Shown in pieces: positions 705 through 3,751 of a stretch of 26,841 nucleotides of DNA (its first letter is position 1; the number at the start of each line of letters is the position of its first letter). Under the pieces are notes generated by a model. It saw only the letters and a program-made list of their open reading frames with translations, had not been told where the DNA came from and searched no databases. Source of the stretch: a virus. Taxonomy: Duplodnaviria; Caudoviricetes. Made by a program: the position numbers and the translations under genes. Location of the stretch: positions 1-26,841 of IMG/VR virus record IMGVR_UViG_3300010376_000113. One strand, 5' to 3'.

Positions 705-1520
705 TTAGCGGAGAGTACGGACGATGTCGTCCAGGTCTTTTGGGCGCCACAGGAACACTTCGACGCCGGGTATTTCGGCTAGCAGGGTGAGCCAGTGCTG
801 CTGGTGGTGTGACAGTTTGCCGGTGGCCGATTTGAGTTCGGCGAACACCAGGCGGGGCGGCCGGCATAGGGCCAGATCCGGGAATCCGGCACCGTCGCCG
901 GACACGGCGGTGCGCCAGCCGTGCTCGGTCCGGGCCGGCCGGAAGTGCGCTCGTTGCCAGCCGAAGAGTTTGGACAGGTCGAGGACGTAGGCCAGCAGGT
1001 CGTCTTCGGTCGGCTGGAGGCTCGCCAGCGACAGTCCTTTTGCGATGCGGGACGCGATGGCACGCCTCCTCTGTCGGCACGGTTGGCAGTAGACGATCTC
1101 GCCGCCTCGCCGCCGGTAGGCAACCTCGCGGGGATGGCCGGCGACGCACACGCCGAGACGGTGGATGGCCATGCCAGGCGACTCACCGCGGCGGGTGTTC
1201 TCGGCGGCTGACACCAGCTCAAGATGGGATGGGTTGCAGCAGATCCGGTTACGGCACAGGTGGTCGACCTGCAGCCCGGTTGGGATCTCGCCGTAGGCCA
1301 TGGCCATGACAACCCGGTGGGTGTATTCGACGCCCCGACTGCGGCCTAGGTTGATGCGTCCGTAGCCGGCGCCGGCCAGCTGCGATCCGGTCCATTCCCA
1401 GCAGCCGTCGGCGTTGACGACGATCTTGGGTACCATCCGCCGGGCCACCCGTTCCCATCCCGGGACAGCAGCCAAATCTCCGACATGGATCAAGTCGCGG
1501 ATCTTGCGGGGTGTGGTCAC
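705..1520 (-). CDS. HNH endonuclease fused to a VRR-NUC (PD-(D/E)xK) nuclease domain
   Basis: CWEWTG...GYG...HRV...VDHLCRNRICCNPSHLE..N (HNH), then CxxGH...CxxC, then TEDDL...GFPDL...FAELK..TGKLS..QQHWL (VRR-NUC). Confidence 0.85.
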   Translation of the reverse strand: MTTPRKIRDLIHVGDLAAVPGWERVARRMVPKIVVNADGCWEWTGSQLAGAGYGRINLGRSRGVEYTHRVVMAMAYGEIPTGLQVDHLCRNRICCNPSHLELVSAAENTRRGESPGMAIHRLGVCVAGHPREVAYRRRGGEIVYCQPCRQRRRAIASRIAKGLSLASLQPTEDDLLAYVLDLSKLFGWQRAHFRPARTEHGWRTAVSGDGAGFPDLALCRPPRLVFAELKSATGKLSHHQQHWLTLLAEIPGVEVFLWRPKDLDDIVRTLR

Positions 1521-1794: not shown

Positions 1795-2560
1795 GATCTT
1801 CTTCTTCCTGGCGTCGTAATCGGACCAGCGTGCGCTCCAGCTCGGAGATCCGCTCGGTGCGGCGCTGTCGTTTAGCTGCCTTCTCTTCTTCAGGGCTCAG
1901 CTTTCGGAGCCCGGGAATGACTGGCAGCTTGATCAGCTCGTCGATCTTCGCTCGCTGCTCAGGACTCAACGGCGGGAACCCGCAGCAACGCTGACAATGC
2001 TGGGGGCCGCCGCCCCATGAATGGCCGGCGAATCCGCAGTCGGGATGGTCCCGGCGATATCGCTCGTTCTCGTCAGCCGAACGGTCACCTGTCCACGGCA
2101 CGCCGCAACCGGGGCAAGGCAGCCCGGCTTTCGCTTCCTCGTAGGACATCAGCCGGGCGGGATGCATTCGGCACATGCTGATCATGAATGCCTCTTTGTC
2201 TCGCTCAGCCGCCTCGGTGTCATAGGCGCTCGTCAGCTCTTCTAGCGGCATCCCCAGAACTTCGGCCACAAGTGGCAGTTTGCGCTTGGCCATCATGGGC
2301 CTGTCATGATGAAAAATATTGTTGACGGTCGCAGCGCCCAGCAGCCGTATAGCCTTTTTGCGGTCGAAGTAATCATGGTCGGTAAGGAGATTCGCTGCGT
2401 GGTCGATGAAACAGTCGACAAAGGCCCGGCTGGCGCGGAAGTCGTGTTGTCTGATCCATTGCAGATATTGGGGATGCAGTCGGCCGTTTTCTAAACGCCT
2501 GGGATCATCTAGGCGGGGACGGAACATTCGGGCCAGCTCCGAGGTGCTCTCAGTGGCCAT
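1787..2560 (-). CDS. Hypothetical protein: XRE-like helical segment, Cys/His-rich putative Zn domain, C-terminal coiled coil
   Basis: TVNNIF...LPLVAEVLGMPLEEL; CPGC...H..C...HCQRCC; charged tail; visibly more AT-rich than flanks; start uncertain. Confidence 0.7.
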   Translation of the reverse strand: MATESTSELARMFRPRLDDPRRLENGRLHPQYLQWIRQHDFRASRAFVDCFIDHAANLLTDHDYFDRKKAIRLLGAATVNNIFHHDRPMMAKRKLPLVAEVLGMPLEELTSAYDTEAAERDKEAFMISMCRMHPARLMSYEEAKAGLPCPGCGVPWTGDRSADENERYRRDHPDCGFAGHSWGGGPQHCQRCCGFPPLSPEQRAKIDELIKLPVIPGLRKLSPEEEKAAKRQRRTERISELERTLVRLRRQEEEDRE

Positions 2561-2844
2561 GGCGGCGTTCGAAGTCGTCGAGCATCCGGCGGCTGCGGAA
2601 GGCGAGCCCGAACGCAGATGAGGTCCGGTCGTTCAACGTTGCTCCAGTCGACGGTCTTCAGGTCGCCCAGATTGGGCACGCCAGGCCAGTGTTTCGCCAG
2701 CACCCGACTGGCGTAGGGGTTGATCTCGGATTGCCAGATGACTTTCATCCCGGCCCGTTCGAGGCCGAGGTCAAGTCCGCCGATCCCTGAGCATTCCGAG
2801 CCGACTGTGAGCTGCGGATAATGGGCCTTATGCGGACTAGACAT
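2509..2844 (-). pseudogene. Truncated C5-cytosine DNA methyltransferase (N-terminal motifs only)
   Basis: LTVGSECSGIGGLDLGLERAGMKVIWQSEI...LGDLKTVDW...PDLIC, then diverges before the catalytic GGFPCQ motif. Confidence 0.75.
2811..2838. other. dif-like tyrosine-recombinase site 2
   Basis: Minus strand AGTCCGCATAA-GGCCCA-TTATCCGCAGC, same orientation and core as site 1. Confidence 0.6.
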
Positions 2845-2861
2845 CCTGGCCTGACCCCGAG

Positions 2862-2929
2862 CGCGACAGAAGGCCCCCGTTGGGAGCCTTCTCGTCGTCG
2901 GAACCGCGTGAGCGGGCCGGATCGCAAGT
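2862..2929 (-). ncRNA. Candidate small antisense RNA complementary to the adjacent tRNA
   Basis: 2899-2929 is an inverted copy of tRNA segment 3013-3045; preceded by TGCTACACT and followed by a strong hairpin; ends inferred. Confidence 0.6.
2868..2892 (-). terminator. Terminator-like hairpin
   Basis: AGAAGGCTCCC-AAC-GGGGGCCTTCT (11-bp stem, one G-U); no clear U-tract. Confidence 0.55.
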
Positions 2930-2936
2930 AACGACC

Positions 2937-2945
2937 AGTGTAGCA
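2937..2945 (-). promoter_or_regulatory. Putative extended -10 promoter for the antisense RNA
   Basis: TGC-TACACT; shares CCCT-NN-TACACTG with the element upstream of the tRNA. Confidence 0.5.
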
Positions 2946-2969
2946 GGGACTGTCGCAAGCAGCCCCTGC
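2943..2969 (-). terminator. Hairpin in the tRNA 3' trailer
   Basis: GCAGGGGCTG-CTTGCGA-CAGTCCCTGC (10-bp stem, one G-U). Confidence 0.5.
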
Positions 2970-2984
2970 GGGTTAGTGCTGCGG

Positions 2985-3068
2985 CGGAGCGTGTGGGATT
3001 CGAACCCACGGGACTTGCGATCCGACCGCTTATCAGGCGGTTCCGTTCGGCCTCTCCGGCAACGCTCC
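2985..3068 (-). tRNA. tRNA with anticodon GAU (Ile) on a class II tRNA-Ser-type body; CCA not encoded
   Basis: GGAGCGT-TG-CCG-GAGAGGCCGAA-CGG-A-ACCGC-CTGATAA-GCGGT-C-GGAT-CGCAA-GTCC-C-GTGGG-TTCGAAT-CCCAC-ACGCTCC-G; all stems pair. Confidence 0.92.
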
Positions 3069-3078
3069 GTCACTGAAC

Positions 3079-3084
3079 AGTGTA
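3079..3084 (-). promoter_or_regulatory. Putative -10 element for the tRNA
   Basis: TACACT 10 nt upstream of tRNA G1; no canonical -35. Confidence 0.45.
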
Positions 3085-3101
3085 CTAGGGGGGTGTGACC
3101 G

Positions 3102-3188
3102 TTATCGGGCATGACGTCTAGCCTCCGCGTTGCGGGAGTTGCGCTTACGGCAGACCTTGCAAGAGCGATGCACCCGGTTATCGGTCAT
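3102..3188 (-). CDS. 28-aa basic CxxC peptide, possibly a gene remnant
   Basis: ATGA overlap; MTDNRVHRSCKVCRKRNSRNAEARRHAR. Confidence 0.4.
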   Translation of the reverse strand: MTDNRVHRSCKVCRKRNSRNAEARRHAR

Positions 3189-3751
3189 GGGACCAGCCGC
3201 CCTTGTGTCAGGCAGCGCAGCGGATGCGCCTCGCGGGCCAGGATGTACCGGCCAACGTCGAGCGTGTACCCGTCGGGCGTGCCCGGGCACTCGTGCCAAT
3301 GCCGGCCGTGCATCGAACGCACCTGCTCCCACCACTGCGCCGGGGTGACGTCGACGTACTGGCGGGAGTCGACCGGGGTCAGGCGGCGCACCCGAAAGCT
3401 AACGATGGGATTCTGCGCCTCGAGCTGGCGAATTCGGTGGTTGAGATCGTCGATCTCTTGCTGCACCTCGGGCGACCGGTCGATGCGCCAGGCCACCCCG
3501 AACGCATCGAGGCCGGCGGCGGTAGCGAGTTTCTTGCTGACCTGGACGCCCTTGTCCATGAGATCCTGGCCGACGTCGCGGAATTCCTCGTAGATGGCCA
3601 GCGGGTCCCGGCAGAAGTGGCAGAACTCGGTCCAGTCCCGGTCGGCCACGTCGAGCCGGTGGCCGGTGCGCCGATAGATCTCGGGCAGTTCGTCGCGGTG
3701 AGCGGTCGAGAACGTCAGATCAATGCCGGGATTGCGGCGGTGGCGACTCAT
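3185..3751 (-). CDS. Hypothetical protein, possible PD-(D/E)xK-like nuclease fold with CxxC
   Basis: ATGA overlap with the MTase stop; DVADRDWTEFCHFCRDPLAIYEE pattern; function is inference. Confidence 0.65.
   Translation of the reverse strand: MSRHRRNPGIDLTFSTAHRDELPEIYRRTGHRLDVADRDWTEFCHFCRDPLAIYEEFRDVGQDLMDKGVQVSKKLATAAGLDAFGVAWRIDRSPEVQQEIDDLNHRIRQLEAQNPIVSFRVRRLTPVDSRQYVDVTPAQWWEQVRSMHGRHWHECPGTPDGYTLDVGRYILAREAHPLRCLTQGRLVP

Follow-up and report, generated by a model that had tools for sequence, protein, structure and literature searches.

What is a tRNA with the body of a serine tRNA and the anticodon of an isoleucine tRNA doing on a phage, and how might a cell that carries it tolerate it? 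The window, by which we mean the whole stretch of 26,841 nucleotides analysed here, is a 26.8-kb contig of a soil phage, of 69% GC, with genes for terminase, portal, capsid, tail, endolysin and integrase as well as repressor-like and excisionase genes, and because integrase, repressor-like and excisionase genes are among them the phage is likely temperate. Its GC content, the weak matches of its portal to Microbacterium phages (28%) and the presence of a resembling cassette in an Acidimicrobiales assembly (L219) suggest a host in the Actinomycetota. The tRNA gene, the only one of the window, lies on the minus strand in an early/middle gene block with DNA methyltransferase genes on either side, its immediate neighbours being an upstream 188-aa ORF, which has no assigned function and for which no viral relative was found, and a truncated C5 methyltransferase gene. 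The body of the latter and a 257-aa ORF without assignment fill positions 1750-2813, a segment with a 10-nt direct repeat at both bounds that is skipped in a variant from run X2, where the start at 2844 is joined to a small ORF ending at 1585. Further along, one ORF at 705-1520 (minus strand) holds an HNH endonuclease together with a weak VRR-NUC match.

The tRNA is real and not a sequencing error, as a contig of run X2, which comes from a separate study, spans 2813-3289 with 0 differences from the window; run X1, possibly not independent of the window, has the same tRNA letters, and the GAU at 3034-3032, where a check of the reads had been proposed, is thus genuine. Run X3 covers only a small share of the window, and the tRNA lies outside that share. 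Among the sequencing runs listed as containing the window none is of RNA, which speaks neither for nor against the reading. In run X1 a 580-nt contig, a single one at a depth of 4.5, holds a related tRNA (window 2981-3069) with 9 differences, including one at 3032 that turns the anticodon into GAA (Phe). ARAGORN calls the window gene tRNA-Ile(gat) at 2983-3068(-), and a local Rfam search with RF00005 gave 52.8 bits for 2985-3068(-), while a search of the whole window at the Rfam gathering threshold listed nothing. When phage and plasmid records were searched by blastn with the tRNA region, none covered 80% of it, the best annotated phage matches were ordinary tRNA-Ser, and a close-sequence pattern of the region had 0 matches in viral contigs.

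The sequence-only reading had described a Ser-type cloverleaf with a canonical 7/5 fold, and this description was borne out. The acceptor has 7 bp with G1-C72, G2-C71 and A3-U70, followed by discriminator G73; the D stem has 3 bp, the anticodon and T stems 5 bp each, the anticodon loop is CU-GAU-AA, and the variable region of 15 nt forms a long arm with a 4-bp stem and a 5-nt loop. No CCA is encoded, CCG following G73, and the folding energy is by itself unexceptional (z -1.56). Serine identity resides mainly in the variable arm and does not use the anticodon (PMC9976931), and the long variable arm, G73, G1-C72 and G2-C71 that define a Ser body in that source are all present. The comparison of isotype models that had been suggested was run with purpose-built nhmmer profiles, not with tRNAscan-SE; these were trained with masked anticodons on tRNAs of the fetched loci and classed 175 of 181 reference tRNAs correctly in 3-fold cross-validation. 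As had been expected, Ser was best for the window tRNA with 43.9 bits, ahead of Tyr (13.1), Leu (12.6) and Ile (8.4). Ser was likewise the best profile for 65 of the 66 intact genes with non-Ser anticodons among the matches listed, a figure to be read in the light of a Ser training set and a tested gene set that were both partly chosen by a Ser-type pattern.

Could this nonetheless be an unusual but cognate tRNA-Ile, charged by IleRS through its GAU loop and supplementing the decoding of ATC? ATC is indeed the usual Ile codon of the phage, as had been claimed, and accounts for 246 of the 275 Ile codons counted across 20 of its genes. A38 is an Ile determinant, and bacterial tRNA-Ile has A73. 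The known Ile determinants include anticodon-loop features and C29-G41 (in part from PMC9976931), and since the window tRNA has the whole Ile anticodon loop (GAU, A37, A38) and C29-G41, it is possible that it is charged with Ile to some extent. The short variable loop, A73, C4-G69 and U12 pair of tRNA-Ile are nevertheless missing, and in their place stand the 15-nt variable region, G73, G4-C69 and G12-C23, of which the last three depart from the E. coli Ile set. The low score of the Ile profile speaks against a cognate tRNA-Ile as well, the same cassette occurs with Phe, Leu, Val, Arg, Trp and Tyr anticodons on a Ser body, and the antisense partner described below would be superfluous for a helper tRNA, which together make this explanation very improbable. 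The predicted insertion of Ser at AUC/AUU is, on the other hand, well supported by the identity elements, the masked profile and engineered analogues. In five genomes looked up for the canonical tRNA-Ile of the host there was one clear class I match. Recoding of AUC to Ser by the phage was considered and rejected: at the 14 ATC positions of one protein, the portal, 119 homologues have 50% Ile, 25% Val and 9% Leu (84% in sum) and 1.1% Ser, and because these positions align to Ile/Val/Leu columns the phage still reads ATC as Ile.

The sequence-only reading had treated the gene as an odd, lone tRNA. The Ser body stood, whereas the reading proved incomplete in that it missed an adjoining predicted antisense RNA gene, with which the tRNA makes up a two-RNA module instead of standing by itself (Table 1).

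Table 1. Parts of the tRNA-antisense cassette in the window
Feature	Position	Strand	Basis or remark
Predicted tRNA promoter: GTCACAC motif (3099-3093) and TACACT -10 box (3084-3079)	3079..3099	-	inferred
Ser-type 7/5 tRNA with GAU anticodon (3034-3032); predicted toxin	2985..3068	-	ARAGORN, Rfam, sequence, masked profile, run X2
GC-rich hairpin, -19.2 kcal/mol; possible end of tRNA transcript	2943..2969	-	computed fold
Extended -10 box TG-n-TACACT; predicted small-RNA promoter	2937..2945	-	7 nt ahead of antisense segment
Antisense segment, 31 nt; predicted antitoxin RNA	2899..2929	-	complementarity, cofold, shuffles
Terminator-like hairpin at the end of the antisense RNA (core 2892-2868)	2864..2897	-	fold; without a long U run

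The antisense segment starts 55 nt downstream of G73 and is able to pair with the variable arm over 12 contiguous bp as well as with the anticodon stem and the D stem's 3' strand. Its complement score of 36 was reached by 0 of 3000 shuffles (maximum 28), and the best complement to the tRNA elsewhere in the window scores 21. Cofolding of tRNA and antisense gains -18.3 kcal/mol with a predicted opening of the cloverleaf, and the predicted small RNA, of about 65 nt including the terminator, leaves its 5' end unpaired, opposite the variable-arm loop. A strict scan of 2750-3300 for sigma-70 promoters and U-tract terminators returned 0 and 0. The motifs do recur across six aligned tandem cassettes, which share the order promoter motif, tRNA, extended -10, antisense and hairpin: a motif similar to that of the tRNA promoter, the -10 box of which sits 10 nt ahead of G1 in the window, precedes the other five and the cassette of a further phage (L469), the TG and TA of the extended -10 box are invariant columns, and the variable arm and its complement change together. 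The GC-rich hairpin between the two units is kept with changes in L469 and is absent from the other five.

Pattern scans of viral, metagenome and genome contigs placed the window tRNA in a family. The patterns require particular D-loop, T-loop and 3' letters, leave out Arg YCU anticodons and are weighted to NWN anticodons and GAU, two of the scans extend over 9 and 42 of 64 parts, and the family counts are lower bounds; at least 328 distinct Ser-body tRNAs were parsed, at least 319 of them with enough flank (9 of the 328 with a flank below 120 nt were left out) and at least 60 of those GAU, with L252 excluded as non-independent of the window. An element was defined as a complement score of at least 24 within 250 nt downstream of the tRNA. 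Among the matches listed, 25 of the 55 intact missense Ser-body tRNAs, the window included, are followed by an element. In the same listing this holds for 6 of 215 tRNAs with Ser anticodons (most of the six, by eye, being tRNA genes next door), for none of the 10 stop suppressors and for none of the 39 genes that do not begin with GG and have an unpaired 5' end; the upstream control gave 1/55. For GAU genes alone the element was present in 15/25 intact genes versus 0/35 with an unpaired 5' end, and clustering at 80% identity left 17/45 missense versus 3/71 Ser-anticodon versus 0/21, again among the matches listed. At this threshold 30 of the 55 intact missense tRNAs listed (10 of the 25 GAU) lack the element, and no clear complement appeared when the whole loci of 29 element-negatives were searched; several negatives are misparsed Ser or true Tyr genes, and others are real exceptions.

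A held-out scan yielded two new GAU genes, an intact one with the element (L469, score 42) and a 5'-broken one without (L456). The former belongs to a related phage in which a cassette of 75% identity is surrounded by different methyltransferase-like ORFs, and a change at tRNA position 44 is matched in its antisense. Because this antisense binds the window tRNA as well as its own (-49.9 versus -49.6), specificity between close relatives is not strict.

The layout was analysed in 26 positives with a score of at least 22 among the matches listed, whose anticodons are GAU (16), GAA (3), CCG (2) and UAU, CAC, GUA, CAG and CCA (1 each). A single change from a Ser(GCU) loop, as had been implied, is not shown as the origin of the window anticodon, because the family carries GAU, GAA, CCG, CAG, CAC, UAU, CCA and GUA. 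Within this set 19 cassettes are tandem and 7 convergent; a TAnnnT box lies 3-9 nt ahead of the antisense start in 13/26 versus 5.6% in background (21/26 versus 6.5% with a relaxed pattern chosen post hoc), and in both layouts it lies on whichever strand yields the complement, whereas the tRNA itself is preceded by such a box in just 7/26. Many antisense -10 boxes also have a TTG-type -35 at 16-17 nt. In the same listed set the cognate is the best pairing partner in 26/26, a partly circular measure, the antisense covers the variable-arm loop in 24/26, and the variable loops average 7.4 nt versus 5.1 in ordinary tRNA-Ser; family-wide among the matches listed, the 60 nt past the antisense segment fold at -25.9 kcal/mol versus -17.3 for upstream windows.

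These layouts bear on a lock in cis, in which the complement would be the 3' trailer of a read-through precursor that folds back and blocks maturation until a nuclease or trigger acts, with no separate small RNA. The read-through RNA of the tandem layout does fold into the same long duplex (-108 kcal/mol), and 19 of the 26 listed cassettes are tandem. In the 7 of 26 that are convergent, however, read-through would give a sense copy unable to pair in this way, -10 boxes stand just ahead of the antisense start in both layouts, and a hairpin separates the two units in the window, so that we regard a trailer as quite unlikely. Mobile elements often carry tRNA remnants and the neighbouring C5 methyltransferase gene is itself truncated, as might suit a drifted tRNA-Ser pseudogene, or a sequencing error, beside a chance inverted duplication or an att-site remnant. 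Yet all stems are intact, the letters are identical in the run of a separate study, at least 60 distinct GAU Ser-body genes exist, and the element goes together with promoter and terminator motifs and varies in step with the variable arm; this explanation is extremely unlikely and already largely refuted. An att-site remnant was rejected on the grounds that the copy is inverted in 19/26 (among the matches listed) and centred on the variable arm.

Named genome matches include Pirellulales, Kofleriaceae, Acidimicrobiia and Parcubacteria assemblies, and the pattern is rare, with 4/401 genomes in the class of one seed genome (G003) and 1/401 in its phylum, the seed being counted both times. All-against-all blastp of ORFs within 1.6 kb found no protein neighbour common to the family; the largest cluster is one of tyrosine recombinases (5 loci), integrases and transposases are among the neighbours, and the same search found no Thg1-like repair gene beside this or the 5'-broken subfamily. 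Small ORFs beside mismatched tRNAs at L011 and L272 are related to each other by blastp and presumably resemble Panacea/SocA antitoxins. One phage (L313) has two separate Ser-body tRNA(CCG, Arg) cassettes, at 1122-1210 and 1999-2092 (-), each with its own antisense unit. Ser-body amber and ochre suppressors (CUA, UUA) occur in phages and genomes (L031, L033, L036, L037, L041, L045, L060, L083, L163, L189), and none of these has an antisense unit.

Taken together, we consider it probable that the cassette is an RNA-RNA toxin-antitoxin module of a mistranslating tRNA and an anti-tRNA small RNA; an RNA-only poison-antidote pair seems likely because the pairing of tRNA and complement recurs in many unrelated phages and bacteria. 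Each RNA would be transcribed from its own promoter, and the tRNA would be matured by host RNase P and the CCA-adding enzyme and charged by SerRS, which ignores the anticodon. Once free, it would insert Ser at AUC/AUU throughout the proteome, which is lethal in engineered analogues: in yeast, tRNA-Ser(GAU) and tRNA-Ser(GAA) cause death by misincorporation of Ser, an effect that alterations of the variable loop suppress (PMC6125640); of three chimeras compared in human cells, tRNA-Ser(Ile) was the strongest (PMC2836549); and Ser-charged allo-tRNAs with Leu anticodons kill E. coli, although some of the allo-tRNAs tested by Mukai et al. were inactive in translation (PMC5389517). By analogy, since such tRNAs are toxic, an intact gene of this kind should need a lock. 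The unpaired 5' end of the small RNA might enter at the variable-arm loop and unzip both the anticodon stem and the variable arm, on which recognition by SerRS mainly depends, thereby blocking charging or leading to decay. If the prophage is lost, or another phage shuts the host off, transcription of the cassette would stop; the small RNA would then be the first to decay and would leave the stable tRNA free, with addiction or abortive infection as the outcome. Among the matches listed, a promoter-preceded complement is frequent beside intact copies and absent from every stop suppressor and every copy with an unpaired acceptor, and the simplest account of this would be a toxic tRNA that is stable and an antisense antitoxin that is labile.

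An antisense-regulated tRNA need not kill, and might instead serve a tuned, low mistranslation or, in lytic growth, be a decoy that occupies SerRS or host defences aimed at tRNA-Ser. The position of the cassette in an early/middle gene block between DNA methyltransferase genes is in keeping with this, as is the existence of benign natural mistranslators such as tRNAProX (PMC10404621, PMC11415595). A decoy, however, has no need of an Ile anticodon, the antisense-linked anticodons are mostly those of hydrophobic residues (in scans weighted to these), and the phage's own ATC codons, in Ile/Val/Leu columns, would be hit too; we therefore think a non-killing role unlikely.

In a second subfamily the 5' end is broken. 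Among the matches listed, 35 of 60 GAU genes have a Ser body without G1-G2 (mostly CC or GC instead), L001, L227, L242, L251, L282 and L294 among them, and none of this subfamily has the antisense unit. A 5' leader hairpin closing on positions 1-2 is found in 25/40 such genes versus 15/66 intact and 37/211 Ser genes, again among the matches listed; it often runs into the acceptor strand, and an upstream GG could pair with C71-C72. The hairpin is possibly a second lock, as a structural switch, an excisable insert or a site of 5' repair; blastp of ORFs within 1.6 kb found no protein neighbour in common. Here we speculate, more tentatively than for the module itself and with some doubt, that protein-free killer cassettes of about 200 bp may be widespread on phages and mobile DNA, in which the toxin is a Ser-body tRNA whose anticodon can be exchanged (Ile, Phe, Leu, Val, Arg, Trp, Tyr) and the antitoxin a small RNA directed against that tRNA, that their lock might open on shut-off of host transcription so that lysogens abort superinfecting phages through corruption of the code, and that the second subfamily might use the leader hairpin to hide the acceptor end.

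If the RNA-RNA module is confirmed, it would answer how cells tolerate mismatched tRNAs able to wreck their proteome and what these are for, a puzzle raised by the allo-tRNAs, and it would be a toxin-antitoxin system whose toxin is a tRNA and whose antidote comes from a small RNA gene that serves a single tRNA. Current annotations conceal the class because annotation tools name genes by anticodon (ARAGORN gives Ile, Phe, Leu and Arg for family genes). Being short and needing host enzymes only, the cassette can be tested directly, and it points synthetic biology to a suppressor tRNA that an antisense RNA could switch. A literature search judged by titles and the starts of abstracts found no antisense-controlled mistranslating tRNA and no tRNA toxin with an antisense antitoxin, though subscription papers or supplements may hold one, and a term search of the available part of an allo-tRNA review (PMC7609411) gave none of the former either.

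Allo-tRNAs (Mukai et al. 2017, PMC5389517) likewise combine Ser identity with non-Ser anticodons, come from soil metagenomes and mobile DNA, act as lethal missense suppressors in E. coli and often lie close to protein toxin-antitoxin genes. The window tRNA, known by its sequence, shares the apparent Ser identity, the non-Ser anticodon and the mobile setting, but they have 8/4 or 9/3 acceptor branches and a tRNA-Sec-like D arm, whereas here the acceptor has 7 bp, the T stem 5 bp and the D stem 3 bp. The putative antitoxin also differs from the protein toxin-antitoxin genes beside allo-tRNAs in being an RNA aimed at the tRNA itself; a term search of the main text and one supplement of that paper, as available, found neither the word antisense nor the word complementary. 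The tRNAProX of Streptomyces and Kitasatospora (PMC10404621, PMC11415595) is, as here, a natural bacterial tRNA with a mismatch of body identity and anticodon, although its body is Pro and not Ser, and the terms antisense, phage and toxin were not found in the available text of those papers. The engineered tRNA-Ser(GAU)/(GAA) of yeast (PMC6125640) and tRNA-Ser(Ile) of human cells (PMC2836549) are the same chimera with strong toxicity from Ser misincorporation, suppressed in yeast by changes in the variable arm; they were built in the laboratory for eukaryotic cells and are regulated through tRNA decay or transfection, whereas the window tRNA is natural and bacterial and has its own predicted off-switch. 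In type VIII toxin-antitoxin systems, SdsR-RyeA and CreTA (TADB 3.0, PMC10767807), both partners are RNAs within 200 bp on either strand, and the two adjoining, protein-free RNA genes of the window, their transcription being inferred, fit this layout, with toxicity and neutralisation as predictions. CreT sequesters tRNAs and CreA acts through Cascade, while the toxin here is predicted to corrupt the code as a functional tRNA adaptor; SdsR and RyeA lie on opposite strands and overlap, while the putative antitoxin here is encoded separately, downstream of the tRNA gene, and complements it imperfectly. As neither validated member has a tRNA as its toxin, the cassette, if it acts as proposed, would be filed under type VIII by the TADB definition with a mechanism unlike either of them.
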